In this document: positions 25,965 to 58,583 of the stretch, in pieces
How positions within the stretch are numbered: the first letter of the stretch is position 1
Layout: each line of letters begins with the position of its first letter
Origin: a virus
Taxonomy: Duplodnaviria; Caudoviricetes
DNA: 64,000 nucleotides
Virus record (IMG/VR): IMGVR_UViG_3300007214_000006
Strand: one strand, 5' to 3'
Notes under the pieces: model-generated
What the model was told of the DNA's origin: nothing
Seen by the model: the letters and a program-made list of their open reading frames with translations, nothing else
Database searches by the model: none
Program-made: the position numbers and the translations under genes

Positions 25965-28900
25965 TTAATAACATACCCCAGTAAACATCATTCCCAATCC
26001 GCTAGGCCCTCCACTAAAATCAAAAGAATCTGATCCAAAAGTTGGTGAAGGGTCGGTCTGTGTTGACCTAGGATCTCCATCTGTTCCGACGCTTCTCAGT
26101 TCTGATGGCTCGCTGCTTCCGTAGCTATTTATAGCTACAATTTTAAAGAAATATGTATTATTTTCTGAAATATTACTAATGAGTAAATTTGTCGCTGTTG
26201 GACTTACAGAACCATTGTATGTAATCCAAGAAAATTGGCCTATTGGTGTGATGCCATCATCGGGCCAATAATAGACAATATATCCATCTCTAGGAGCCAA
26301 ACCATCACTAATAGGAGCAGTCCATGACAATAATGCGTCATACTGATTTCTTACAATAGACAACGATTGCGGCTTACCAGGAACATCGCTAGATGGAGTT
26401 ACCAAAGGAGTAGGATCACTAGGCTGAGATTTGCCTACAACGCTAATTGCTATGACTCTAAATTTATATGATGTCGTCGAAAACAGATTGCCTATATATC
26501 TATAGGTAGCTGGATCCGCAACCAAAGGTAATCCGTCACTGGTTATTTGTTCACTTTCTAATGGAAGCCAGTCCTCTGCTATATCAGAATAATATTCTAT
26601 TAGATAAGCATAAATTGGTTTTCCTCCATCGTTTTCTGGAGCTTGCCATTCTAGAACTATCGCATTGTATTTGGGTGTTGCAACTACATTTGTGGGCTGA
26701 CCGGGAAGCTCTGGATTCGGCGGAGGAATAAGGGAAACTATCTGTCCCAAAGTATTTATCGTTAATGGATAATTAGGCACATATAGTTTTTTGTTTATCG
26801 ATTCTTCATATGGCACAGGAATCGCTCCATCCCAAACAGGATTAAGTACCAATTCATTGGTTATAACACCTTTACTATATGTATAACCATCTACACTTAG
26901 GTCCGCATAATTCGATAGAGGTAAATTACCACTAACCAATACTCCTGTGGAACTAATTTCTAATCCGTATTCTTTTTCTAGCGCTAGATTCTCTTCTGGT
27001 GTAGAAGCGTAAGATATAATACCCTCATAAACCCCACTAAGCGATGTGATAGCGTAAGGATTATTTCTATTTATAGTAATCTTTGGTTTTATGTCTAATT
27101 GTATTCCGGTTGCTCTAACAATCTGTTGATTTTGTACTATATCTGTTTTTCTAAAAATTCCACTCTCCAAAGATCCTAAAACACTATTTGGAATAGAAGC
27201 ATGTACTCTAAAAGCTGGAACCAAACCAGAAGGTACGCCATTTTCATTTGTTCCAAACCATTCTGGTTCGTATCTAGTAAATAATGTTTTTCTGTGGCCA
27301 TAAACAATAAAATCAATATCTTCAGCTATTTTATTAAATGTAGTATAAATATTAGGTCTAATACTAATTGTATTAATTGTGCTTGGCTTGAATCTATATT
27401 CACTATCTGTTGATAAACCATCGCATGTAAATCCTTCAACAGCTTCTGGCTCAATCTTCATTTCAAGATAAGCACCCTTTTGTATAGAAAATGCGTAACC
27501 TATATATCTACCATTGTCAACATCTCCTTCTCCTAAAACCAATTGAGACTGAGAATAAAAACTTTCTGGTATAGGAGGACATACAGTAACTATTAGATCG
27601 GCTTCATCAGTAAAGAAATCTTTAGTTCCATCGCTAGCTCTGGCATCTACTAAACTAATATTAGCAACTTTGACATAAAATACTTCTTTATTTTGATTAT
27701 AAATAGCAATAGTCTCATTGTAAGCAAATTCTTGAGATATATCATTTAAGTCTATTGGCCCTGTGCCTCCTTTGGATTCATCCAAAACAATAAATCTAAA
27801 TCTATCTATGTCTCCTTCTGCTTCTATTCCCATAAACTCAATAGCTCTTCTGGGATATCTGGTCCATGTAACACCAGGGGCACTTAGATAATCCGGCTGT
27901 TTCCATAGTGCTGGACCTGTACCGTTATGTGTTAAAATACTGCCACTAAATCCGGGAACTAAAGGTCCAACAAAAATCCTATCGGTATATAATGCTGGTG
28001 GTAGTTCTGGCTCAGTAGAGCTTTGGCCACCAGATGGTTTATATATACCAACTACATAATTACCAAGAGACTGAGCCTGAGATGGGGCTAATCCAATACC
28101 GAACCAATTCGATGCGGTCAAGTATCCTTGAGATGAATTATGTATAATTGCATTTTCTGCTGTGCCATTTAATACTGGATATAATCCTGAGTTATTAACA
28201 GTTCCTCCCGTGCTATCAATTGACGATACTACCATATATTCTGATTTTAAATAATCAGAAGAAATAACTTTGGTATCATTAACTTTGAATAAAAACCCAC
28301 CGCTTGATCCAGGAAACATACCTCCTGGCACAACATTTCCATCAGAACCTAAATATTCGAGCCCGCCACTGGGACTTATTCTAACCCCACCTTTACTGTC
28401 TAATCCTGAGCCTATAAAAATAGATTGGTAAAATTCTGTTCCAGATGGTGTTATATTAACTAAATTTATTGGATTTATTTTATTAATAAATACAGTATTG
28501 CCTGTTGTGGCAAAAACTATACCGGTATTAGATATGACGGTTCCAAATGTTCCAGTAACTAATGCTGTTGGAGATGATTCTACTACGGTATTGTCTCCCC
28601 CAAGTTTAATATGAAAATAATTCCCGGAACTATTAGCAGACAATACTTGGCTATCTGATGGTCCCAAATTTAAGCTGTCTGCATATAGATTTCCTGAAAT
28701 GCTCAAAGCGGATATTAGTCCGCTACCATATTCAAATGGAGCTAATCTATTTACAGTAATTGCTGTTCCGGAGGATGAAATAGTTTCTGTTGGCATAGGA
28801 ACATAATATGCTGCCTTATGCCATTCATTTAAAGATGGTAGCCAATATTTTGGATCTTTTTTCCTTGTTACCGCAATTGTTCCTGCTGATTCACTAATAT

Positions 28901-31868
28901 AATAAGATCCGTCCTCGGTAGTGGTGGATGAAACTAGATCTCCGGTTGGCGCACCATTATTTAACCAATTAATAAACCTTAGTGAACTTAGATAGTTTAT
29001 ATATACTGCTGGCATATTTAACATGCCATCTTTTGTAGAATAACTGAACGGCGTAGTTGAACCATTTCCGGTTCTTAGTATTCCTCCATGTACGCTATTA
29101 GACATTCTAATATCATAAAGACCATTAGCAGCAGCCCCTGTAGCCACAGCATTTAAGAAAGAAACATATTGTTTATTCGTTATCTCTGTTTCAGAGATTG
29201 TATATGGGTAATTTACTGATCCAAGATTATTTTTACTTATAGGTGTTGGTTCGGCTTTGACAGTAAATCTATTATTAAATGATTCTGTAAATAATGGAGA
29301 CGAATCAGATGGATTGTTGGTATTTTCTACAGAAGTGAACTTGAATTGCATAGACTCATTGATGTTAGCATCCATAAATCCAGCTTTTGAGCATATTCTA
29401 AATCCAACATCATCAAAACCCGACAATCTAGGGGTTGGTATATAACCCCTTAAACTATTGACATCAGATGTTCTCCACGATCCTCCGCATATATACTGAT
29501 TAGTATTGATAGAAGATATTTTTTGATCATCTTCTATCCACTCATAAACATTTCCGTTTTGATCATATGTTCCATAAAAACTTTTTCTACCATTGGTTGA
29601 TACAACGCTAACCATTCCAGTCCAATATACGGATCCTGGAGTATAAGCAGCCTCCTGGAAATTCACTGTATTATTTGATCCACCAACTCCATTACCATTC
29701 ACAGAAATTTTAACAGGAATAGGGTCTATCGACGAGCCATCTGCTGATTCTAATTGAGTAGCATATTTATAATATTTACCTGATGGCTGGGTATTGACTG
29801 TTGCTTTAGCAAATATATTTAACGCTGGTATATCGCTAGTTCCATAAATCAAAAAATCTATATTCTTTTTTGTTGTATTAAAAATTGTTGGAATATTTGG
29901 TCTGGTGCTAAGTTGAATTGCAGTAGCATCAGAAACAACACCAGAAGTATACAATTCATTTTTTAATACTCCGCCTCTTGTGATAGAGAATATACTTAAA
30001 TCTCCAGATAGATTAATACTATCCTGAACAACCAATCCAGTAATTTCATCATTTGTAACAAAAATATCTTCTATTGTGTTGTATAATATACTATTATCAG
30101 AAGTGTTATTTATTGCTATTTGATCTCCAATAACAAATTCTTCTATTGGGGCTGGGGTTATAAGGTCTATTTCTTTAGTAGTTTTACCTATGCAAACTTG
30201 ACCGGATCTACTTGGATATCTAGTCCAGGATAAGTCTTTTCCACCTAGTCGAGGATTACCTGTTTCATATGGCCATAAATCAGAAATATTTAATTGAGAA
30301 ACTACTGTACCGCCATCAGTGGTTGTTAATATTTTTCCTGCGCTCTGATTGCCCAAACCTGGAATTTTGAAGCCTGTTGTTGCAATAATTCTTTGAGAAG
30401 AATCTAAACATAATAATTGATTTGTTTGATTAATATATGGCAATCTTAATGATGTTAAAACGGATACTACACCAGTTGTAACTATATTAGAGGCTCTTAT
30501 CCCGACAGACGAATCATTACCAGTACTTGCTATAGAAATAGAAGAAGACCCTAAAGAAATATTACTGTTGTTAAAACTTATACTATCGCCAGAAGACGAT
30601 ATTTCTAATTTTGCGCCACCATTGGAAATCAATGTTAGATCTGGATCTGTACTAATAGTTGTTTTAGATAGTATTCCATCAGAAACTACAAAATTTATTT
30701 GCCCATCTCCATTTACAACAGATTTAGTATTAGCTTCTATTGATGCATACGAAACTTTATTTCCGCTATTGTTTTTAGCAGAGAAGGAAACCTTGCCAAT
30801 CGTCCTGTTGTCGGCGTTATTTAATGAGTATGGATTTTTATATAAAGCTATGTGGGCGGGAAATTCGCATGAAGATTTATTTTCTAATCTTAGATCTTCA
30901 TTGCATATATTATTTATAATATGAAAAACTGTGGCTGGTTTTATGCCGGATGGCATATTTAATCCAAATCGTCCATCGTGAGTAAAGATCAAATTTCTAG
31001 AAGGATAATTGGGTAAGTTGCCACTGCCATATACTATAAAATTACCTGATTCTTTAGTTTGATTAAATATTGTATCAAAAGATCCAGATGAAGGAATCAC
31101 ATTTTTAGCTAAATTTTCTGTAGAAGAACCAAATAAAATTTTATTATTATTTCCAACATAAGCATTAGCTCCAGCAAAAGAACCCGCATCATTATACTGT
31201 AATGATCTATCATCTCCATGTGGTGTGCTTTGTGCAGAAAACGCTGATTCTGCATCGTAAGATAAAGTGGATGTATTACTATTATTGGTATTCAGTATCA
31301 CCCAATCTTTGCCGGTTGACACAATAGAAGCATAATCATCATTTGATAAAGATAATAAATGGCTGTTCTCATATTTAATAGATAATGATCCCGATCCGAT
31401 AACTTTAAAAAATATTTCTAATCCAATATTATTTTTAGGATTCAATAAGCATGCTTCTATATATCCGGTTGATGTATCAACTATGTAAACTGTCTTTTTG
31501 TTATCAATAGTAAAATTATTATTTTTAACAGAAACATTATTAAATCCTGTATTAAAATTTAATGAATTTACAAACAAATAAAACTGTTTTGTTCCTCTAT
31601 CAGAAAATTGAGTTTGATGATTATTATTTGATGAAGAAACCACCGTTCTATTTGTTATCACTATTGCAGAATCTCTTTTATAAATTTCTCCAGCGCCAAT
31701 TTCCCATTCTATTGTATTTGAATCTATAATATTTCTAGCTAAATATGGTATAGTAGATCCGATATGAGATTCGTTTAGATTGTTATATCCTGGTAATGTA
31801 TTTAATATGACTATATCATTATTATTATTAACAGAAAAAAGACATCCTATATTATCGAATATATGCAT
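25965..31868 (-). CDS. Tail fibre/adhesin (1967 aa) with a permuted FGE-sulfatase (C-type lectin fold) domain and two C-terminal FN3 domains
   Basis: GTYDQNGNVYEW, GGSW, GFRI, EITNKQY, LPSLNEWHKAAYY; PGQPTNV..LEWQAPENDGG..Y.IEY and PGKPQSL..LSWTAP FN3 repeats. Confidence 0.8.
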   Translation of the reverse strand: MHIFDNIGCLFSVNNNNDIVILNTLPGYNNLNESHIGSTIPYLARNIIDSNTIEWEIGAGEIYKRDSAIVITNRTVVSSSNNNHQTQFSDRGTKQFYLFVNSLNFNTGFNNVSVKNNNFTIDNKKTVYIVDTSTGYIEACLLNPKNNIGLEIFFKVIGSGSLSIKYENSHLLSLSNDDYASIVSTGKDWVILNTNNSNTSTLSYDAESAFSAQSTPHGDDRSLQYNDAGSFAGANAYVGNNNKILFGSSTENLAKNVIPSSGSFDTIFNQTKESGNFIVYGSGNLPNYPSRNLIFTHDGRFGLNMPSGIKPATVFHIINNICNEDLRLENKSSCEFPAHIALYKNPYSLNNADNRTIGKVSFSAKNNSGNKVSYASIEANTKSVVNGDGQINFVVSDGILSKTTISTDPDLTLISNGGAKLEISSSGDSISFNNSNISLGSSSISIASTGNDSSVGIRASNIVTTGVVSVLTSLRLPYINQTNQLLCLDSSQRIIATTGFKIPGLGNQSAGKILTTTDGGTVVSQLNISDLWPYETGNPRLGGKDLSWTRYPSRSGQVCIGKTTKEIDLITPAPIEEFVIGDQIAINNTSDNSILYNTIEDIFVTNDEITGLVVQDSINLSGDLSIFSITRGGVLKNELYTSGVVSDATAIQLSTRPNIPTIFNTTKKNIDFLIYGTSDIPALNIFAKATVNTQPSGKYYKYATQLESADGSSIDPIPVKISVNGNGVGGSNNTVNFQEAAYTPGSVYWTGMVSVVSTNGRKSFYGTYDQNGNVYEWIEDDQKISSINTNQYICGGSWRTSDVNSLRGYIPTPRLSGFDDVGFRICSKAGFMDANINESMQFKFTSVENTNNPSDSSPLFTESFNNRFTVKAEPTPISKNNLGSVNYPYTISETEITNKQYVSFLNAVATGAAANGLYDIRMSNSVHGGILRTGNGSTTPFSYSTKDGMLNMPAVYINYLSSLRFINWLNNGAPTGDLVSSTTTEDGSYYISESAGTIAVTRKKDPKYWLPSLNEWHKAAYYVPMPTETISSSGTAITVNRLAPFEYGSGLISALSISGNLYADSLNLGPSDSQVLSANSSGNYFHIKLGGDNTVVESSPTALVTGTFGTVISNTGIVFATTGNTVFINKINPINLVNITPSGTEFYQSIFIGSGLDSKGGVRISPSGGLEYLGSDGNVVPGGMFPGSSGGFLFKVNDTKVISSDYLKSEYMVVSSIDSTGGTVNNSGLYPVLNGTAENAIIHNSSQGYLTASNWFGIGLAPSQAQSLGNYVVGIYKPSGGQSSTEPELPPALYTDRIFVGPLVPGFSGSILTHNGTGPALWKQPDYLSAPGVTWTRYPRRAIEFMGIEAEGDIDRFRFIVLDESKGGTGPIDLNDISQEFAYNETIAIYNQNKEVFYVKVANISLVDARASDGTKDFFTDEADLIVTVCPPIPESFYSQSQLVLGEGDVDNGRYIGYAFSIQKGAYLEMKIEPEAVEGFTCDGLSTDSEYRFKPSTINTISIRPNIYTTFNKIAEDIDFIVYGHRKTLFTRYEPEWFGTNENGVPSGLVPAFRVHASIPNSVLGSLESGIFRKTDIVQNQQIVRATGIQLDIKPKITINRNNPYAITSLSGVYEGIISYASTPEENLALEKEYGLEISSTGVLVSGNLPLSNYADLSVDGYTYSKGVITNELVLNPVWDGAIPVPYEESINKKLYVPNYPLTINTLGQIVSLIPPPNPELPGQPTNVVATPKYNAIVLEWQAPENDGGKPIYAYLIEYYSDIAEDWLPLESEQITSDGLPLVADPATYRYIGNLFSTTSYKFRVIAISVVGKSQPSDPTPLVTPSSDVPGKPQSLSIVRNQYDALLSWTAPISDGLAPRDGYIVYYWPDDGITPIGQFSWITYNGSVSPTATNLLISNISENNTYFFKIVAINSYGSSEPSELRSVGTDGDPRSTQTDPSPTFGSDSFDFSGGPSGLGMMFTGVCY

Positions 31869-31894: not shown

Positions 31895-34800
31895 TTAGGC
31901 TTGATCAAAAGGATTAATTAGTGGCGCTCCTGCTGTTTGATTTAATGCTGTTAGTTCAGCAAATTTTTCTCTTATAGAATCCATAGCAATATCTTGTAGA
32001 TCTGGTGATAACTTATTCAATGCAGAATCTCCATTAATTATCACATTATGAGTATGTGTTACTGTTATAGTTATTTCCTGTGGTATAGCACTTAATCCGG
32101 CCAAAGTATCGGCTACGCTCTTAAGTCTATTGGTAAATTCACCAATCTTATTAAGAGTATCCGTATCAATAGATGATACACCATTTGTAGTTGTTGTGGT
32201 CAAACCGCCACCAATAGCAGAGGATGCGTTTTGAAAACCCGTAGTGATAGCGCTTGTAATTTGGCCAAAGATATCACCCATAAAAGAAGATAAATTGAAA
32301 CTGCTATTATTTGCTGACGTTATACCAGCTGTTTCGTAATAGTTGGGGAATATAATCCCGCCGCCTGATAAATATTTTACTATTCCTCCCCTGCTATAGT
32401 GGCCTTCATTTATAGCTTTTAGAACAGGTAGGTGCTTTTGAGTAGCAGCCCTATTAACTACAAATTCTCCGGGTGTTAGCATCGCAGGAACGGTATCTGT
32501 GCCTCTTGGTTGATAATTAACTAATGCTCCTTTGCTAGCATAAACTACCCCTCCGTTTGACATGGTTGCTGTTTGTTGAGCTGCTTCTTCTGCTTTTTTA
32601 GTTTGTTCTTCTTTTAGTGCTCCTGTGGCAATAATTATTTGAGCAACTTGGTTTGCGGTAAGGGTGTCTCTTCCGTTTTCTAAATTTAATAATGGTTTAT
32701 AAGATTGTGAAAATTCATTCCAGTTTTTACTACCCTCATCAGATTTCATTGCTTTTAAGGATGTTGCCAGAAATTTATAATCAAGAGCTTCGACCCAATT
32801 ATCGGAACGACCCAGCTCGGTATCGTTTGGCTCACCAGTTGCCATTCCAGTATTAACCAACCGATCAAATTGATGGAAATACCATTGTAGGCTTTCTAAT
32901 CTGTCTATTTTTTCTTCTCTTAATGCATCAGTAGGAATAATAGATTCTCCGTATTTATTTTTTCCTGATGTATAGAATGATATTAATTGATCAAATAGAT
33001 TAGATCTAGTACCTATATCCGGAAAAACTCTTTGAGGATCAAGAGCTAATTCTCTAACCTTATTCCAACTATCAGGGGTAACATCTTTTTCTACCTTGGC
33101 CTGTCCTGATGCTCCAAAAGCATAACTATCTCCTTTTGCAACTCCTAATGGATTGCCTTTTTCGTCAACCGGCTGTTCATATGCGGTGCTTGTCATACTG
33201 CCTGTTTTAATCATAATTTCTCTATTTATAATAGATTGTAATAATTCAGGAGATGCCCCGGTATAATTTTTGTAATATCTTATAACATTATTTCCTAAAG
33301 TGCTTTTTTCTATTAAAGGCTCACTAAATGCATCGTCCGCCATATTCACACCAAGATTTTGTAATAATTTAGCATCTTTATTATTATATATCTCGGCAAA
33401 TGCTGCCCTCCATGCATCTATACTGTGTCTAGCATAACTATCACTAGGAGCATTGGCGGGAATTTTGGAACTTATTGCAATAGCTGTGTTTCCTATATCT
33501 GCTATAGTAGTAATGTCTTTTTGTAGTGCTTCCTGCACATTTTTGGGTGATGATGTTTTAGCTAATTTATAGAACGCTCTAGCCAATGTTATTCTTTTAG
33601 CATCATTTACTTTGGCTAATTCGTCCATAGAAAAATCAGACTTAACTGCTGAAATTGCTTTTTCTTTTTCTATTTTATCTAGATTTTTTTGTCTAGCCTC
33701 TAAAAATTTAGAAAAATCATATGGAACCTCGGGATGATCTTCATTAGATAATGTAAAAGGCTCGACATTTGGATATGATGAAGGATCAAGGAATTGGGTT
33801 GTTTTGAAATTTGTTTGCTCTCCAGATAAGATCTTAGTAAGGCTGTTATTTAGGTCGGTTGTCCAAATAACGCTGCCTTGAGGAATAATGCCACCAGCAA
33901 AAGGATTAACAGGACTAATATCGGGTGATTGTGGCTCTATAAAAGCGTACCTTGGGCTTATAGGCTCATCAGTGTATCTACGTGAACCCATATTGAATTT
34001 AAGGCTTGGAGCTAGATATCTGCGATATGTAAATTGAAGACCATCTTTATTATATTCTTCAATTTTACTATTAACGTTTTTCTTAACTAGTTCAATATTA
34101 TCTTGGATATTTCCAAAGACAGAATTATAGTCCTCGGGGGTAAAGCCAGCATCTGTCCAAGCGAAAGATTTAATGTTATTATTCGCTAGATCTTTCAGCT
34201 TAATAAAGTCATCACCAGTTTCTGAAAAATTAAATGACTTTTGAGCTTTTAATGCTGATATTCGACCAGAATAGTCTGACCATTTTTTACTGATATTTTC
34301 GTTATAAAGAGTTAATGGACTTTGGTATCCCTCTATTGTTTTATTGAACGGGGCGCTTGGGATAGTGTTATTAAATAAATTTTGAAAGTTTGATATTCTC
34401 TCTTTATTTTTCAAAGACTCTTCTGTTTCTTTAAATGATTTTTTATCTTTTAAAATAGAATGTGTTGTTGTTAAATTTTCTTGTAAAATAAAAATTTTAT
34501 TTAAATAATCGCTTAAATAGGACATAGAGTCACCAAGATCATCAGATACTATCTCTGTTGCAAAATTTTGATTTCGTAATGGTTTTGCTGCTATTTTTGG
34601 CAAATAGTTTCCTCCTCCTATGTATTCGCCTGCATCAAACGTAACGGTATTAGAATTTCCGGCATTAGCTTTAAATAGATCATTGACTTCTGATGGCAGC
34701 AATAAAGCCCCATCAGAAATATTAGAAGCAGATTGGGTCAGATTTTTAATCACCCATGTAACCTGATTATTTTTTAGTTTCTCTTCTTTTCCTGGACTTA

Positions 34801-37800
34801 TTGTACCATCTGCATTACGTATTAAGGACGTTTTAGTATTTTTTGTTGAAACAGAAAAGGATGGTGATGCCTGATTTGGTTTTATCTTATTAAGATCATA
34901 AATTATTTTATTTTTTCTTGCTGTTATTAATTCACCATTATTTTTATCTATAAAAGGTAGCATTTCTGATATTTTATTTGTTTTTTCTATAATATCATTT
35001 AAAATTGCCGATCCTTCTTCTATGCTTAAAGATGTTGTTTGATTTGTAGCATCGTCAATCCATTTTCTAGATGGAAGCTCAGTGAATTTTCTGGATAATT
35101 TATGTTTACTTTGGAACTTTAATGGCACAGAGTTATTGCTTGTTGATTGAATTTCATCAACACCGGTACCGAGCCCCCAAAATAAAGATTTTCCTGTTAT
35201 TAATCTGTTTATATTTTTAGGTCTATTTATATCTTTGTTTTCATATAATTCGTCTGATGATAATAAATCTTCTTGAGATCTTGAGCTTAAAGCATAACCA
35301 ATATTATCAAAGAAATAAAATTTTTCTTTTGTAATATCATTAGCGTTAATATATTTCCAATTTATATTATCTAATTTTATGCTTTTATTAGTCCTACTTG
35401 TCTGTTCGTAATCTCTTTCGGCTTTGTCTTCTCTTTCTTTTTCGTCAGCTATATTTGACCATTTCTCATCTACAGCAACGTATCCTCCATCAGCATAATA
35501 TTTTACCCTACCTCCACTACTATATCCTCCACTATTAATTTTATTTAATAACGGTAAATGTTTTTGCGTTGCTGATCGATTAACCACAAACTCGCCAGGA
35601 GTTAACATAGCAGGAACAGTATCTGTGCCTTTTGGCTGAAAATTTACTAATTGTCCAGCAGCAGCGTATATTATACCTCCTGAGCTGAAACCGTCTGCTC
35701 CCATAGCCCCTGGTTTATTTTCAACAACCTGTCTTAACAGTTTAATTTCGTTTACAACATCGTTTAATTGAGCTCCCTCAAAGGTAAATTTAAATGTACT
35801 CATTACTGATGCAAGTTTTGTGGCCGCTGTTTCTTCGGTATTTTTGGCTATGGCTAAATTTAAAAGACCAAGTTCTTTATTTGCAAGTGCCTGTAAATCA
35901 ACTGCTTTTTTATATTCGGCGATTGCTGCTTGCATCTCAGGGTCACCTTCTGGATTTCTTAATGACTGAAGGACCTCTGCCATCATAGAATTAACGCCAA
36001 CACCACTCTCCATAAGCATGCTTTCCAAAACATTAGCTTTCATTTCGTTTTGTTTTTCGCCAAGAAATGGTGCTATCATATTAAAAGCATCCAAACTTTC
36101 TTTTCTCTGTTCTGCACTACTACCAAAGTTAATTCCGCCCTGCATATTATTATTTAATCTGTCCATTGCCCTATTTAGCTGACTAAATTCTTGAGGACTA
36201 CTAGTCACCAGCCTTTCGGCCATATTGACACCGGCCTGTCTTTTTTGTTGTATCTCATTAATCTTGGCCATTGCGATACTGGCCATTTCGGTATTGTCTG
36301 CCATGCTCTTTAATGCGTCATAATTTTCTCTAAGAGCAATATTTGTATTTCTTAGCCTGTCTTGCATTAATTTAAATTCGTCAGCTCCACCAAAACCTCT
36401 TTGGCCAGCAGTATTACTCATGCTTTGTTGAGTTGCTCTTCTATCTTCCAATCTTCTAATATTTTGAGCTATAGCTGCCGGATCAGTTATTCCTCCAGTT
36501 TGACTTCTAACTCCAGCAGTAGCAACGTTCATTTGATCTCTCAAAGATATCTCTTTTCCAAGAACTTTATCCAATTCCATTTGACCTCTAATTTGTATAT
36601 CAGAAGCTCTTCTCATTCTAGAATTAGCTTCTACTTGTAAATCAACCATTTGATTCATGCTATTTGCATAATCATTTAATCCATTTTGCCAATGTTCTAA
36701 TGCTTTGAGTGCTGCTTCTTGTGCTCTTCTTGTAGCATCCATAACTTTTCCAAGTTGAGGAACTTTTTCCATTAAATCTCCAAAATCTATCTTTTCATCA
36801 CCCTTTTGTCTAATTTGTCCTATAGCTTCATTGACTTGCTTGCTTAGTTTTGCAGATAAATCTGGCGGTATTTTTAGGTCTTCGAGTGCTTTTGATATAT
36901 TGCTTTGTATCCTGATTCCAATTTTTTCATTTCCAGCTGTTGGGTCTTCTTTTATCGTTTTGTTAATAGTTGACATTATAGTATCTTCTATCGCTCCTCC
37001 AGCTTGTAATAATCCTTTCATTGTTGCTGATTCTGATCCAAACATATTGGCTGCATTTTGTGCGGCAGATGCTCTCTCGGTTTTGTTGTAAGCCCTTGGG
37101 TTTTGTAACACATTCATGCTTTTTAACGCAACTTGACCAGCTTTTGCATTTCCAGACAAAGCAGATGCTGATAGCTCTGCTTGTTGACTTAAATTATTTA
37201 ATTGAAAAACATTACGTCCAATAGCTTGTTCCATATTCTGAAACATTCTTTCTAAGCTATTTTGTAAATGATTTGCTGATCTATTTAGCTCTTCCAAAGA
37301 TTTTTCTTTTAGGATTTTTGTTTGAATTTCTCTAGCTTTTCTTTCACCGTTTGCTGCTATAATACCAGCGATCATTGCTGATTTTTGTTCTTTTTGAATA
37401 TTTGTGCTATTTTCAATATTCATAATCTGTTCTTGTACAGATGCGTCCGCTAAAGCAAGACTTCTAATAAAGGAGTCGAACTGGGGTTTATTTTCTGTCT
37501 CCAGATCAGATATAGATGTTCCAGATTTAATATTACTAGTTAAAAATTGTTGAGTAGCCTCTGCTGCCCCACGAAAATCAGCAGCTCTATCTCTTGACTT
37601 TTGTGGAATTAATGTAGAATATTGTCTAGATAATCCTATATCTGACGAAGAGTATCCTAAAGAATTTTTATTGGACATTCCAAACATGTTTGATATCGGA
37701 TCTTCTAGTGTTTGTATATACGAGCCAACGCCTTTTGAAAATAATACTTCTGATCTTTTATCTACATTTTCTCCATAATCAAAAAGATTTGCAAATCCTA

Positions 37801-40800
37801 ATTGAGGTTTATTTTTTGCCGTTATAACATTTTCTGTCTGTCCTATGGTCTGCAATACCTGCGTCCTAGCTGTTTCTTTAACGGATCTATCTTTTAAATT
37901 TTCAGAAAATTTTTGTAAACTATTATTTGTTATTTCTATTGATGTCTCTAATTTTTTTTGTTCTGACGATATTGCAAATTCTCTAGCGGCATTTTCAGCA
38001 TCAATAAAGGCTTTTGTCAATCCTATTACTGCTGTCGTCACCATTGCAACTGGTCCAGCAAATTTGGCGATACCACCCATACCTTGTGTCATCTCACTAA
38101 CCATAGACCCCATCATCACAGAGCTGCCTATGGCAGTAGTCGCTCCCTGAGTTAGCGATTGTGATCTTGCTTGACTTGCTGTTTTTGCTTCTCCTCCAGC
38201 AAACAAATCGCCTATCATCGGAATAGCCATACTTAGCATAAAAGCTCTATTCATTGCACTATTTTGTCTATCTCCAGATGATCCGGCTGCTACTGCTCTT
38301 CCTCCTACAAGCCCACCATTGTTTCTTCTTCTATTCGCAGCATTTCCAGCTAAAATAGCTTGTGAACCAGCACCCCCTCTACCAAATCCTGCGTCTATCA
38401 AAGCTTGTTTTCTTGCTGCTGGGTCTAATGCCCTAAAACTATCACTTTGAGTTAAATCTCTCATAGAAGCCGATGCTCTACGACCAGCTGCAACAGGAGC
38501 AATTCTGCTATTGGCAGTTGTTTGAGCATTTCTTGCTTGTTCTTGTGAAGAAAATGGCATTACTCCAATATTTTTTAATGTGTCTGGTAATACATTAGAA
38601 ACCAAATTTCTAGCCCTTAATCCAGTTGATCTTATTGCTCCTCCTATTCCTCCAAGTCTATTTTGTCTTATTCGTTGAATTTCTTCTTGTCTATCTCGTC
38701 TCTTATCACTGGAGTATATACTATCATAATAATCTCTACCAGTTTGATTGCCTCCAGCGCGTCTCTTAGGATTATATCTACTAGACGGTCCAGAAACATC
38801 AGTCATTATTGTTTTCAAGCCTTGCTTATACTGCATAACTGCTGTTTTTTTTGCTTGTGCTATCTCTTTATCTGATTTTAATGACATTTTCATTAATTGA
38901 TTCGTCACCTGAGCATCAGTTAGATTTACTCCATATTGTTTTAGAGCAGCTTGTTTTATTCTCAGTATTCTTTGATCGATATCTATTGTGTCTGTTGCAT
39001 ATTTTTTTTGTATAGCTTGTATTCTATCGTCTCTTTCTTGACGAATGTTTCTTCTTAATGTTCTAGCCTGTGGTGTTGCTTCTGCAGTTTGCTGTCTTTG
39101 TTGCTGTCTCCTTCTAATTCTGGCTCTAATTTTATCTTCTCTTTGTTGAAGAGCATCTGCTTCTCCAGCTCTTATATCATATGTCATACCAGATCTTATA
39201 TATTGTCCTGGCTCTAATGGTCTAACAGTTGTTCCTCTCGCAAACTTCTGAACAACTCCACCATTATGATATTTATTTAATTTATGGAGATTAGAATATC
39301 CTATAGCTTGAGCAGAATGTCTGTTAATAACATACTCGCCCTCTTGGGCCATGATGGGTATTTCTCCACCAGCAGCATATCTACCTCTAGCTCTTAAATA
39401 TTTTTTTTGCTCTGTGGTTCTACCTTCATAATCAGAACTTCCTAGTCCTTGTCTTTGTTTCCATGTTGCTATTCTGTCTTGTTTTTGCATTATGGAGCCC
39501 TGTACCTTTTCAAGCAATCCAGCAGGCCCCGTATAAGGTCTTAAAGATTTTGGCAGCTTTTGGCTTTCACTGGGAATTCCCCAATCAGTATAAAATAAAT
39601 CGCCTTTTGCGTTTCTTTTTGTAAATTCAGCTATAGCTTCTTCTGGGGTTAATGTTTTACCAGTAACCTCTCTCATTGCTTTTACAACATCATCTTTTAA
39701 ATATTTCGATCCTCCATGAGTTATCAATTCTGGTCCTGATTCAGGAGCGCCTCCCTCGCTTAATTTTTGTACGGCTCCACCAAAAGCAAAACCTCTAGCT
39801 TTAAGATAATTAGTAATATTGCTGGGTATTTTGCCTCTTGGTCCAGTTAAGGTTCTTTTGGCATCAACGGGAATATTAGCAAGCAAAGAATTATTAAACC
39901 AATTTCTTGCTATGGTTGCGCCAAGACCATAAGGAAAGTCAACGCTTCTATGAATCTCAGCTTCTTGTGCCATTGCCCCATATAGTTGGGGCGCAGTTTC
40001 TTTAAGATAAGAACTAATTTCATTTTGAAATTTAGCCCCCTGGCTATCTGCTATTGCTTTTTTAGAGGCTCTATCTTTATCAAATGTTAGTCCATAAGTA
40101 TATGATTTGATATTTGATGCTTTTGCGGCCATAATATTTTCTGCAGCATCATCAACAAACACACTCGAAGATGACCCGGCGGCTTCTAATATTGTGTTTG
40201 CTTTTGCTACTCCAACAGCCTTATCTGACATACCGCTTCCACCGACACCTCTAACATTACCAGCCGGTATTGGTAAACCCTTTGAAGCCAACCATGAGGC
40301 AATAGCTCCCATTGTATTTTGAGGTCTAGCACTTACAACATACATATTCGACAATAAAGAAGATAACTGATCTGGCATTCTCTTTCGAGTTTTATTAACC
40401 AAACGCACCAGACCAGACATTAATATGCTGGGTTTTGCTTTCTGTAAGCCTCTGGTTACCAAATCAAGATCACCAAAAGCTGTATAGTCTGGTTTTGTTC
40501 CCTTTTTAGCTTTGTATCCTATTGGATCTGTTTTAAGTGCTAGCGTCTTATCAAAATCAAAAAATGCCTTTGTTCCCGAACCGCCAGATAAAGCCTCAAG
40601 AATACTTTTTGTTAATCTCTCATTATTTCTTTTTCTAACACCAGATAATTCTTCTCTTGTATATTCTTTATCTAATTTAGATGCTATTGGAGCATTTTTT
40701 ATATCTATATAATTAGGATCATTTAGTTGTAACGATTTTAGTCTTGCGGCTCTAGCTGCTTTATTTTTGTCTAATACGGCACCAAAGACTCTAACAGTAA

Positions 40801-49742: not shown

Positions 49743-50816
49743 TTATGCTTCATATGGAGGGGGTTCATATGTAATAACCATATGCCATCCAGATATGCTT
49801 CCCGATGAACCTATATCTTCGTCTCTGATAATCAAAGACCAGTTTCCAGAACAGCTGTATCCAACCAATCCGGTTATAGAAGTATCAAAATTCTCATAAT
49901 TAATATTATCTAAAGTAAATTTATAATTTTGTTTTTTGTCTAAAATATTTAAATAATAATCATTAGAATTTCTGTTATTTAGGTATATGCTGGGTAGTGC
50001 TTTGTCAGAAAAGGCAAAGCTCAATCCACTACTTGGGTTATAATTTTTGATTTTATTGTGGCTAGATAATAATATTTTGTTTCCAGATGGCGGCACCAAT
50101 ATCATGGACAGATCTTGGGGATGAGAATGAGTTAATTTATCTATAGCTATTTCAATATTTGTAATTATTCCTGTATCCGGAATACTGATAGTACCACTAA
50201 TGGAGCCCATATCTGGTATATTCATATATGGCCCAGAATACATTTTGCCAAACATGTCCATGCCTTGACATAGGTATCCACAAAAATCTTCTTGTATAAT
50301 ATCACAAGGAGATATTGTTGTTGGCGTAGGAGTAGGCGTAGGATTCTCTCCAGTTGGTACGGGGGTACCTCCATCTCCATCTTCAGATATATTGGTTCCA
50401 TTGCTATCGTCACAAATAAGAGCATCGCACGGGGCGCAAATTCTTGAAGGATTGCCTCCAATACAATCTACAAAATTATTTGGAATAATCTCTATGCGTC
50501 CTGTGGAAATCCTTCTGCTATCTATGCTATCTGAATTAACATCTAAATCGTATACTGCGGATGTAAAAGTAAAATCTTTTGTTACAGAGGCTGGGAGGGA
50601 CCATGTTATGAACCCGTCCGAACTTTTAGATAGAGTGTAATTATTACACGCTACTTCGCTACCATAAATTCTGACAACATTAGTATTATCTTTCATTCTT
50701 AATCTAATACAATAATTAGTAAGATCTATGGGATTACTATTCACATCCAGATACTGAAATGTTATTTCAAAAAATGAACCTTGTTCTATAAAAAAATTAT
50801 AAATTGCTGCTGCCAT
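49743..50816 (-). CDS. Virion protein: N-terminal EQGS Ig-like module, Cys/Pro-Thr linker, C-terminal proprotein-convertase P-domain
   Basis: ITNIEIAI..LTHSHPQDLSMILVPPSG..SGNWSLIIRD..GSISGWHMVIT. Confidence 0.75.
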   Translation of the reverse strand: MAAAIYNFFIEQGSFFEITFQYLDVNSNPIDLTNYCIRLRMKDNTNVVRIYGSEVACNNYTLSKSSDGFITWSLPASVTKDFTFTSAVYDLDVNSDSIDSRRISTGRIEIIPNNFVDCIGGNPSRICAPCDALICDDSNGTNISEDGDGGTPVPTGENPTPTPTPTTISPCDIIQEDFCGYLCQGMDMFGKMYSGPYMNIPDMGSISGTISIPDTGIITNIEIAIDKLTHSHPQDLSMILVPPSGNKILLSSHNKIKNYNPSSGLSFAFSDKALPSIYLNNRNSNDYYLNILDKKQNYKFTLDNINYENFDTSITGLVGYSCSGNWSLIIRDEDIGSSGSISGWHMVITYEPPPYEA

Positions 50817-55175: not shown

Positions 55176-58100
55176 TTAACCATAATTTTGAGAAAAACTA
55201 CCATACCAATAAGAGCCATCACTAATAAAACTATATATATCTACTTTGCTAGCTAATATGGTGGCCGTTGGCGTGGCGCTATCTGCCCACCTTACTCCAC
55301 TAAAACTTGCAGTATAATTACCACTTCCGGTATTAAGAAACATTGTGAAACTCTTGCCGGCCGTTGTTGCTGGCATGGTAAAAGTGCAATTGCCCGTTAG
55401 TGTACAAGTATGCACAGTGCCACTAACTAAGCTTAATGTTTTGCTAGTGCCACTATTACCATTAGACACAACGCTTTCTGTGAAACTATCAAAAGTAAGA
55501 TTTCCATCAATATTAACATCTCCAACCACATCAAGCTTGACTGATGGAGTGCTTGTTCCTATTCCAACACTGCCAACATAATTAATACACATTCGTTCAC
55601 TGATGTTATTAGCTAGACCCGTAAAAAAACGTAATTTGCCAGCATCATAACTGCTAGAATCTGTTCCGGCCGCTATAGCGGCTAATTCTCCAACATCATC
55701 ATATTTATTATGAAATTTTAATACCACCCCACTCTCATTTGCATCATATATTTCTTTATAAAAATCAAAATCATGATCTGCTTTAATTTTTAAAGCTAAA
55801 CTATTAGCGGTGAAAAATTCTATTGGAACAGAACTAATGTTACCTATTTGTAATTTAGCAACGTTAGAACCTTGTGTTACAATCATGGCGCATCCGGCAT
55901 CACTTGTATTACCACCATAATAACCATGCTGATACCCTGTGCCGTGAACGAAAAACTGCATCACATTATTTTCCCAGGCATTAGAACTATTATTGCTTAG
56001 TGTGAACGAGCCCCTAGATGCTGCGTTAGTAACATTAAAATGAGCTAAATTAATATAGTCTGAGGATGTTGCATCGTTGATCTGAAAAGGTTGGGACTGT
56101 GCAGCGCCTAATATTGTTCCTCCGGCACCGCCAGCAGAAATTGCTAGTTTAGCATTTGGGGCATTAGTGCCTATGCCGATACGGTCCGCACTAGCATCAA
56201 GAAAGAATAAATTACTATCGGTATCTCCTTCTATTCTAAAATCATTATTTGCTCCATCCTCATTGAACACGGCTGATCCTCTGATATCCAGAGTTGTTCC
56301 CGGAGAACTTGTTCCTATTCCCAGTCTATTATTTGTCGCATCCCAATATAATTGGCCGCTATCAGCAACTATTCCGCTAGCACTGTTCCAATATGCTATA
56401 TGATTCGCAACACCGGTTCCGATAACAGGATTAACAATACTACTATTAATTGTAATAGTACCACTACCATTAGTTATGCTAATACCAGTACCAGCAGTGA
56501 GTGTATTAGCAGCTAAACTGGTGCCACTACCAATTAATAATTGGCCGTTACTATAAGTAGACCTATTTGTTCCTCCCTTGGCTACAGATAATACTCCAGT
56601 AATTTGAGAAGTATTAATATCGGAGAGTCTCGCTAAAGTGCCGCTGTCGGCTGGTAACTTAACAATAATATCATAACCAGGAGCATCTGACATTAATGTT
56701 GTAGAATATCCGACACCATTACTATCATTAACATCAAACTTTAGAATATCTCCATTGAACCCTGGGTCTATATTTCCTCTATCTATTTGAAAACCAAATC
56801 CACCAGCCCCTATACTAAATCTAGCTGGTCCGCCAACATTTATACCATTAAAATTACCAGTATTACATACTAAATCATTTATTCTCAAATTTCCATAAGT
56901 GCCAGGAGTATATATACCGCTGCTATTACTAGCTACTCCGCTACTCAACATTACGAATTGAGAAGCGCTAGTGTCCCAGCCCATAAATGCAGTTAAGGCC
57001 GTGCCTCTTATTAGTGCTAATCCTCTATCCAAAGTGTCTGTGGTTACTATATTACCACTAGCTAATCCTAGTGTGATAATAGGATCCTCAATCTCCATGC
57101 GATCCACATTGGCAGTCACTACTGATCCATTAACTGTTAGGTTGCCACCAACAACCAAGTCACCAGAAAAATTACCACTATTACTAGTTAACAATCCGCT
57201 AACACTTAATCCACTACTAAAAATACCATTACCTACAACGTGTAATTGGGAAGCTGGAAATTGTGTATTTATTCCTAATCTATTATTTGAACCAGTAGGA
57301 GTTATATATATAAAATCATTAATACTATTGATTTGAATATTAAAAACTTCTTGTCTTGTATAAGAAAATCCACCAGCACCACCCTGGGTCCAACTGTTGA
57401 ATTTAACTTTCCAATATCTATCTGATGGAATATGATTCATTATTAATTCTGAATCAACTATAAGATTACCAATATTACCTTCTCCCCATAAAGTATATAA
57501 ATTATGATATGTTCTTGATTGAACATTGGTTAAATTATCCCATCCATCATTATTCCACACTGTGCCAGAAGGAGAAAAAATGTAGCTCCAGCTATTTTCT
57601 TTAGCCAAATTATATATTGCTCCACCGGATCCTCTTGTAATAATTAATTCATTTGGTATTATTACATCATAATTATTAGAATATGTATTATCTGGATGAG
57701 TATAACTAATTATAGGAGCAGAAAGATCGTCTTGTTTGCTATTTAGTTGAGTTTGCACATTGACAGCGTTAATACTTAATGAAGTAAAATTTCCACTACT
57801 AGTTGGTACCCATAATCCACTAGCAGTATTGTATTGCAGGAACTGACCGTTAGTGACACCAGTAACAGCCACATCGTGTAATTCTTCCAACTCGTATCCA
57901 TTTTGAATTCTTACCTCAATAACGCCATCGGTTTGGTGTGTTCTTGTAATTGTGCCAATAGTCACAATATGACTAGGAGCATATGGTTTTATACTCGTTA
58001 ATCCTCCAGAAACTGTGGGACTCAAATACAAAACAGTACCATTAACATTGCCTTGAGGAGCAGATGGATTAAACTGATCTGTATTTAGACCACTTAATGC

Positions 58101-58583
58101 TCCAAAGACTATAACTTTACCTTCTTGGTTTATTCCAATGGTCTCATAAGTTAGTCCATAAGTTCCGGCACTACTAGCATCTGTTGTTGCTATTGCTTTT
58201 TGTATTGTTGGTCTGTCTCCATGACCGCCATTGATATAAACGGCGGTCATCTTATTTATGGATGCTCCTGTGTTATTAAAAACTGTGGTTATCAAAGATT
58301 GAGCATGCTCAACAGATCCCGTAACAGATATAGTGGCAGATGAGCCATTAGAACCTAGTCCTATGGTAATATTATTTCCAGCTAATAGTCCTGTTGGATG
58401 TATAGCCGTATAATACAAATTATTCCAGCCAGATCCGTTTATTCCTATTTTTAATTTTCCGGTATCTGTTTCGTATCCTGGTTCACCGGTTGCTAATACA
58501 GAATTAGAATTTGTCCATTCTGTGGAAGTACCTTTTCTAAATTGTATATTATTATATCTTGGCATCTGCTTCCCATGATTCAA
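55176..58583 (-). CDS. Fibre protein with an Mtd-N/hyaluronidase-type N-terminus (1135 aa)
   Basis: IQFRKGTSTEWTNSNSVLATGEPGYETDTGKLKIG; repeated RLGIGT beta-repeats; start probably MPRY at 58565. Confidence 0.8.
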   Translation of the reverse strand: MNHGKQMPRYNNIQFRKGTSTEWTNSNSVLATGEPGYETDTGKLKIGINGSGWNNLYYTAIHPTGLLAGNNITIGLGSNGSSATISVTGSVEHAQSLITTVFNNTGASINKMTAVYINGGHGDRPTIQKAIATTDASSAGTYGLTYETIGINQEGKVIVFGALSGLNTDQFNPSAPQGNVNGTVLYLSPTVSGGLTSIKPYAPSHIVTIGTITRTHQTDGVIEVRIQNGYELEELHDVAVTGVTNGQFLQYNTASGLWVPTSSGNFTSLSINAVNVQTQLNSKQDDLSAPIISYTHPDNTYSNNYDVIIPNELIITRGSGGAIYNLAKENSWSYIFSPSGTVWNNDGWDNLTNVQSRTYHNLYTLWGEGNIGNLIVDSELIMNHIPSDRYWKVKFNSWTQGGAGGFSYTRQEVFNIQINSINDFIYITPTGSNNRLGINTQFPASQLHVVGNGIFSSGLSVSGLLTSNSGNFSGDLVVGGNLTVNGSVVTANVDRMEIEDPIITLGLASGNIVTTDTLDRGLALIRGTALTAFMGWDTSASQFVMLSSGVASNSSGIYTPGTYGNLRINDLVCNTGNFNGINVGGPARFSIGAGGFGFQIDRGNIDPGFNGDILKFDVNDSNGVGYSTTLMSDAPGYDIIVKLPADSGTLARLSDINTSQITGVLSVAKGGTNRSTYSNGQLLIGSGTSLAANTLTAGTGISITNGSGTITINSSIVNPVIGTGVANHIAYWNSASGIVADSGQLYWDATNNRLGIGTSSPGTTLDIRGSAVFNEDGANNDFRIEGDTDSNLFFLDASADRIGIGTNAPNAKLAISAGGAGGTILGAAQSQPFQINDATSSDYINLAHFNVTNAASRGSFTLSNNSSNAWENNVMQFFVHGTGYQHGYYGGNTSDAGCAMIVTQGSNVAKLQIGNISSVPIEFFTANSLALKIKADHDFDFYKEIYDANESGVVLKFHNKYDDVGELAAIAAGTDSSSYDAGKLRFFTGLANNISERMCINYVGSVGIGTSTPSVKLDVVGDVNIDGNLTFDSFTESVVSNGNSGTSKTLSLVSGTVHTCTLTGNCTFTMPATTAGKSFTMFLNTGSGNYTASFSGVRWADSATPTATILASKVDIYSFISDGSYWYGSFSQNYG

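Follow-up and report, generated by a model that had tools for sequence, protein, structure and literature searches.

The sequence considered here is a window of 64,000 nucleotides from the viral record IMGVR_UViG_3300007214_000006, which in full amounts to 122,965 bases (estimated 82% complete) and derives from an uncultured phage with a low guanine-plus-cytosine (GC) content. In the list of open reading frames (ORFs), the gene at 25965..31868 on the minus strand, where all the features described below also lie, encodes P0001, a tail fibre/tailspike-like protein of 1967 amino acids (aa). Residues ~735-1027 of this protein very probably form one intact, circularly permuted domain of the FGE-sulfatase type with a C-type-lectin (CLec) fold, serving not as an enzyme but as an adhesin or receptor-binding module of fixed specificity, and belonging to a lineage of possibly single origin. 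From an AlphaFold2 (AF2) model and a family alignment, hereafter alignment A1, the whole domain spans residues ~733-1027 (28788..29672). Its chain would start in the loop that follows the 'LPxxxEWxKAA' helix of the canonical fold and run through the native C-terminal half (C-half) with its GNVxEW, GGSW and GFR motifs, before entering the native N-terminal strand and the native N-terminal half (N-half) to end at 'YWLPSLNEWHKAAYY', the two halves packing against each other within one chain. Most likely, such a domain would recognise a ligand at the host surface, with variable loops at residues 780-789, 800-819 and 990-1009 presumably setting the specificity.

Three parts can be distinguished along the domain. 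The first, delimited by PF03781 and structural alignment, corresponds to the native C-half (residues 740-835; 29364..29651) and displays VSTNG..YGTYDQNGNVYEW, CGGSW and VGFRIC. It is followed by a junction (residues 836-881; 29226..29363) defined from alignment A1 and the AF2 model, which combines the native N-terminal strand FKFTSVENTNNPSD with an insert, and then by the native N-half (residues 882-1027; 28788..29225, again from PF03781 and structural alignment), with ETEITNKQYVSFLNA, PAVYINY, FINWLNNG and YWLPSLNEWHKAAYY. All nine motifs listed in a preliminary description of this DNA, made from the letters alone, were present on the minus strand where it had placed them, including SFYGTYDQNGNVYEW at 29538-29582 (residues 763-777), CGGSW at 29475-29489, VGFRIC at 29391-29408, FTSVENTNNPSD at 29304-29339, LGSV...FLNA at 29148-29225 and WLPSLNEWHKAAYY at 28803-28844 (residues 1009-1022). 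Regarding the junction, that description spoke of a short linker; the native C-terminus does run directly into the native N-terminus, but over a structured region of ~46 residues that contains the insert SSPLFTESFNNRFTVKAEPTPISKN (residues ~856-880; 29226-29303), ~25 residues long and placed after the native N-terminal strand. In alignment A1, where conserved columns are found in both halves, this insert is restricted to the orthologous phage clade, the bacterial-type and other units being devoid of it.

The order of the two halves is reversed with respect to the family model. Against the whole of P0001, PF03781 scored 35.9 bits (cut-off 23.3) in two stretches; when scanned alone, residues 754-825 corresponded to positions 166-253 of the hidden Markov model (HMM; E 5.4e-4) and residues 887-1020 to positions 35-122 (E 5.5e-6), so the out-of-order partial matches anticipated in the preliminary description were indeed recovered, the 166-253 stretch preceding the 35-122 stretch. 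No Pfam match was found in the flanks (residues 500-760 and 1020-1300), and no match collinear with the full profile was obtained for P0001, whereas its canonical relative P0061 matched positions 36-254 in one stretch. The same reversal emerged when a profile of the family was compared to PDB sequences, since profile positions 26-91 aligned to residues 198-263 of CarF (5aoh_A) and positions 181-254 to residues 79-153; the PDB matches of this profile were CarF, pFGE, EgtB, TvpA (E 1.4e-6), PvdO and FGE. The reversed order is far beyond chance.

Structure prediction points in the same direction. From a 55-sequence alignment A1 of segment 715-1045, whose own numbering is used below wherever a model is mentioned, AF2 returned one compact body with a mean predicted local distance difference test (pLDDT) of 84.9 and a predicted template modelling (pTM) score of 0.87, the pLDDT reaching 85-97 over P0001 residues ~755-1025, junction included. 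In a structure search independent of Foldseek, the top seven rows were all FGE-fold proteins, with more below, and these were always aligned half by half, which is the behaviour expected of a sequential aligner facing a circular permutant. Thus, model residues 115-312, which include the junction, aligned to TvpA 53-215 (Z 5.5, root-mean-square deviation (rmsd) 3.5, 132 aligned residues) and model residues 125-312 to CarF 2-162 (Z 5.4), the second part also aligning to the N-terminal parts of PvdO and pFGE. Conversely, the first part aligned to the C-terminal parts of EgtB-IV, Mtd and TaqVP, namely model residues 16-114 to EgtB-IV 334-442 (Z 4.3) and model residues 19-120 to Mtd 266-380 (Z 2.9). 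Matches in the ESM Atlas covered only model residues ~116-314, with template modelling (TM) scores of 0.42-0.48. Besides, the two halves were submitted to a two-chain prediction as separate chains (P0001 residues 836-1030 and 738-835), each with its own alignment, and docked with an ipSAE (interaction prediction score from aligned errors) of 0.91, against 0.00 for the best control; for reference, 58 of 80 solved complexes attain the docking mark, as do 2 of 110 mismatched pairs. Across the two-chain runs, contact agreement was at least 84%, partner pLDDT at least 70 and confident contacts more than 200 in number, including contacts of GFRIC (823-827) with YWLP (1008-1011), while residues of the junction strand touched the C-half. 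Taken with the out-of-order Pfam and PDB matches, the absence of spare halves and the tail context described below, the pTM of 0.87 and the docking score of 0.91 bear out the initial proposal of a circularly permuted FGE-sulfatase/C-type-lectin domain in a tail protein.

Several points nonetheless weigh against this reading. The structural Z-scores of the individual halves are modest, at 5.5 or lower, and Foldseek found no match in the PDB at E <= 0.001, the sole related row being CarF over 91 columns, as expected for a permuted and loop-rich fold. The AF2 and two-chain models are akin as predictions, and each may draw on a memory of the FGE fold; likewise, the docking pass may reflect the likeness to solved FGE folds, even though this likeness is itself the point here. 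Regarding function, the binding role, which is the most likely one by analogy, and its ligand are drawn only from relatives, namely TvpA and Mtd (PMC5758913), and the phage-dominated distribution presented below relies on the best 80 loci per collection.

An explanation opposed to an intact domain, and one named in the preliminary description as able to overturn it, is decay: two canonical domains in tandem would have degenerated to the C-half of the first and the N-half of the second, remnants that form no working domain and whose missing counterparts would lie nearby. Tandem N-C-N-C arrays are common in the same subfamily, and a stretch straddling two adjacent units of an array of this kind, such as P0003 residues 758-1051, is collinear with the P0001 segment. 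Searches of the six-frame translation of the 122,965-base record with half-specific HMMs at maximum sensitivity, however, recovered a single C-half and a single N-half, each within P0001, and as reported above Pfam found no further half in the flanks. The two halves are also the best-conserved parts of the protein in orthologs down to 38% identity, with identities of 0.52 and 0.51 versus 0.27-0.45 elsewhere when 12 full-length orthologs are compared to the copy in the window. Together with the single confident and compact model, the docking of the halves and the recurrence of isolated C-N units in unrelated proteins, directly after N-termini of the length of a signal peptide, this makes decay highly improbable, an explanation that can be regarded as already largely refuted. 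A subtler alternative retains a working fold but has it completed between chains: in a fibre made of three chains, each C-half would pair with the N-half of a neighbouring chain, in which case the permuted order would serve oligomerisation. Trimers are the usual state of tail fibres, and in Mtd the three chains are intertwined; moreover, the halves associate without covalent link in the two-chain prediction, and the longer junction of the phage clade (~46 residues, 836-881) could permit such a swap. Yet the C-to-N junction is tight across the wider family, with 0-5 residues beyond the profile ends, which favours packing within one chain, and confidence in the monomer model stays high across the junction (pLDDT 86-95), so that a domain swap is deemed improbable, if less so than the other alternatives weighed here.

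The remaining two alternatives accept the single permuted domain and concern what it does. The FGE-sulfatase/CLec proteins form the largest class of targets of diversity-generating retroelements (DGRs), with the variable region located at the C-terminus (PMC5758913), and a DGR-diversified receptor-binding domain whose variable region was moved inside the chain by the permutation could be imagined; the completeness of the record is estimated at only 82%. In these 122,965 bases, though, no match to a reverse transcriptase (RVT_1, PF00078) was found, and in the window no repeat of at least 40 nucleotides (nt) pairs with 29390-29610, except for a match of 50 nt at 70%, at chance level and located elsewhere in the domain; in addition, the stretch equivalent to the variable region, from GGSW to GFR, is similar among close orthologs in alignment A1. 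The DGR connection drawn in the preliminary description thus does not apply here; a DGR target in this genome was rejected as a candidate, and diversification of this kind is very unlikely. Least probable of all is an enzyme of the FGE, EgtB or PvdO type acting on a host or virion substrate, even though the superfamily is shared with several enzymes. Catalytic FGE, as known from the human protein, carries a conserved catalytic pair of cysteines after the GGSW motif. In alignment A1, by contrast, no invariant or nearly invariant column (>=90%) is a Cys or a His, and the P0001 copy has no Cys between GGSW and GFR; NCBIfam enzyme models reached only 16-18 bits on the domain, with cut-offs of 350-500, and yielded only weak fragments of GldK, PvdO and GldJ. 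Because no Cys or His is conserved, the domain is not considered an enzyme of the FGE or sulfoxide-synthase type and, because reverse transcriptase and template repeat are likewise missing, a host-binding module of fixed specificity is retained rather than an enzyme or a DGR target. Of note, the two cysteines of the P0001 copy, Cys794 (29487-29489, before GGSW) and Cys826 (29391-29393, after GFRI), mostly co-occur in the closest orthologs and are replaced by Ala or Ser in others, which counts further against catalysis; a disulfide specific to the clade may link them across adjacent strands.

The search for homologs among 1.84 billion representative proteins returned 5231 hits at E < 1e-3, and the query was split into its halves for classifying the relatives by frame, i.e. 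C-N for the permuted and N-C for the canonical order. In C-N-framed proteins, the spacing is 0 residues (0-5) from C-half to N-half and 140 (42-418) from N-half to C-half; in N-C-framed proteins, the corresponding values are 11 (-3 to 180) and 30 (19-41). Against the Pfam model, canonical relatives give a single continuous match (36-254), whereas those of the C-N frame give only partial ones. Whatever the frame, ~25 residues typically precede the first unit in the protein; for permuted units, the distance from their end to the C-terminus is often ~46 residues. The suggestion that permutation lets the domain sit in the middle of a fibre was not upheld, as canonical units, too, occur within long proteins and in arrays, and many of the permuted ones lie close to the C-terminus. 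P0001 itself has ~25 orthologs of 1100-2000 aa that carry the domain at the same position, in one collinear match, down to 38% identity.

The two frames are distributed very unevenly. IMG/VR contains 316 matching stretches; the units in the best 78 loci of this collection are 75 CN and 10 CNCN, with one array of five CN, whereas those in the best 80 bacterial loci, taken from species-representative genomes mostly of Planctomycetota, Verrucomicrobiota and Myxococcota, are 74 NC and some NC arrays, with no CN. When the domain was compared by tblastn to 50,697 phage records of GenBank, nothing matched. Five permuted units in tandem were observed within one viral ORF, and the phage record considered here contains only one unit; in the related phage contigs IMGVR_UViG_3300042309_002320 (L115, L136 and L154) and IMGVR_UViG_3300037517_003820 (L099 and L125), two or three separate permuted units lie at distant places. 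The C-N-framed metagenomic protein P0029 is encoded within a run of large ORFs on the same strand without Pfam hits, a neighbourhood that looks like a phage fibre cluster. With respect to the host, the likeness to PEP-CTERM FGE proteins of Planctomycetota and Verrucomicrobiota, which the preliminary description had pointed out, was confirmed by the closest cellular relatives. The use of this PVC-group homology as a host hint was rejected on base composition, since the bacterial loci with relatives have a median GC content of 61%, compared to 32-40% for the phage and the 78 related viral loci.

As to the origin of the permuted frame, 333 units were re-framed to a common N+C order and placed on a FastTree phylogeny, along which the frame label changes 4 times, versus about 104 times with shuffled labels, and 6 times when the junction columns are left out; the exceptions are tandem arrays of ambiguous frame, namely P0003, P0031 and P0146. 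With IQ-TREE on 81 rows, a single C-N clade is not rejected by the approximately unbiased (AU) test (p 0.668), the constrained tree being better by 15.6 log-likelihood units; the tree allows a single origin of the C-N frame. Since all the wider relatives of the fold are N-C, the permuted frame would be the derived one. P0003 (2471 aa), P0031 and P0146 have short spacings at both junctions and adjoin the permuted clade on the unit tree, which makes them candidate intermediates of a duplication-truncation route, and the nesting of tight tandem arrays near the C-N clade agrees with the classical scheme of duplication followed by truncation. The permuted lineage would then probably stem from the re-framing of tandem N-C-N-C arrays and have become dominant in low-GC uncultured phages. 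A broader proposal, towards which the balance tips slightly, is that the C-N frame constitutes a natural FGE/C-type-lectin permutant of single origin and the first described permuted lineage, invisible to databases, which serves as a standard host-binding module of large low-GC uncultured phages and of which P0003-like arrays are the surviving intermediates.

The gene of P0001 is placed in the tail module because it adjoins the gene of the tape measure protein (31895..43792, 3965 aa), in which PF10145 (PhageMin_Tail) is matched at residues 190-384 (E 1e-21); P0001 starts 27 nt downstream of this ORF and is followed on the same strand by further giant ORFs. For the first 340 residues of P0001, AF2 modelled two confident beta-rich domains (pLDDT about 85-94 over residues 11-100 and 111-190), so that residues 1-198 (31275..31868), from this model and a structure search, resemble tailspike or baseplate attachment domains. 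In particular, residues 107-197 aligned to the N-terminal attachment region 78-180 of CBA120 TSP4 (Z 10.8, rmsd 2.2, 88 aligned residues), in a match based on prediction, as are those to the Pa223 spike and the KP1 baseplate. The label of tail protein is supported by the tape measure neighbour and this TSP4-like attachment domain, to which can be added two fibronectin type III domains near the C-terminus (residues ~1722-1925; 26094..26705; PF00041, E 1.2e-20, two stretches). PHROGs gave no match for P0001, its five downstream neighbours and nine of the ten upstream ORFs, and BLASTP of P0001 against itself and against the other giant ORFs revealed no significant repeats. A motif of ~20 residues (TIFNxTKxxxDFxIYG / RPNIxTxFN....DIDF) occurs three times in P0001, at residues 266-286, 661-681 and ~1501-1520 (window ~31011-31073, ~29826-29888 and ~27306-27368), the second copy being just upstream of the permuted domain, which may point to a structural module in repeated form. 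Within the structural region, further upstream, an ORF of 1135 aa (55176..58583) carries the N-terminal domain of Mtd (PF18454, E 3.2e-12, residues 13-47), while no FGE/CLec half is detectable in it with the half-specific HMMs, and it may represent a second fibre with a different tip. An ORF of 357 aa (49743..50816) matches phrog_1084, of unknown function, at its N-terminus and, at residues 307-346, a stretch resembling the P-domain of proprotein convertases (PF01483, E 1.7e-6).

The permuted form seems to be without description or database model: neither Pfam nor NCBIfam contains a model covering the permuted frame, and full-text literature searches yielded no description of a permuted FGE or C-type-lectin fold, one candidate paper being set aside since it applied the words circularly permuted to methylases only. 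It would provide a clear case from nature in which the re-framing of tandem repeats has produced a circular permutation, and this in a fold relevant to both phage host recognition and DGR biology, and would explain the fragmentary, out-of-order PF03781 hits in hundreds of phage tail proteins, which a profile dedicated to the C-N frame would annotate properly. It also suggests that new termini can be accommodated by the FGE/C-type-lectin scaffold in the loop following the EWxKAA helix, a property useful for engineering binding proteins, and marks a candidate receptor-binding module in large uncultured phages devoid of recognisable tail-fibre families.

Regarding known systems, all meaningful structural and sequence matches of the domain fall within the PF03781 superfamily. 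The best structural match (Z 5.5) is TvpA from Treponema denticola (PDB 2Y3C), which, as presumed for the P0001 domain, is a non-enzymatic binding protein with an FGE fold (PMC5758913). TvpA is nonetheless canonical from N to C, and its alignment is limited to residues 53-215, which correspond to the second part of the P0001 model; it is also a DGR target with a C-terminal variable region, whereas no DGR was found for P0001, whose equivalent stretch comes early in the domain. With the other PF03781 proteins, namely human FGE and pFGE (1Y1E/1Y4J), CarF (5AOH), PvdO, EgtB and PorK/GldK, the domain has motifs in common, but its match is split into two out-of-order pieces and lacks the catalytic pair of cysteines. 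Mtd from the Bordetella phage BPP-1 (PDB 1YU0) is a phage tail-fibre protein using the same fold for host binding, with a very weak similarity to the P0001 domain (Z 2.9); its domain is canonical in order, C-terminal in the protein and diversified by a DGR, whereas that of P0001 is permuted. Among cellular proteins, the closest relatives are tandem FGE-like proteins of canonical order from Planctomycetota, Verrucomicrobiota and Myxococcota, a number of them with PEP-CTERM, which are 40-47% identical to P0001 over the N-half and share the same subfamily motifs (YGTYDQxGNVxEW and NEWYKAAYY). They keep the canonical N-C frame in high-GC genomes (median 61%), whereas in P0001 these motifs are found in the permuted frame and in a low-GC phage.

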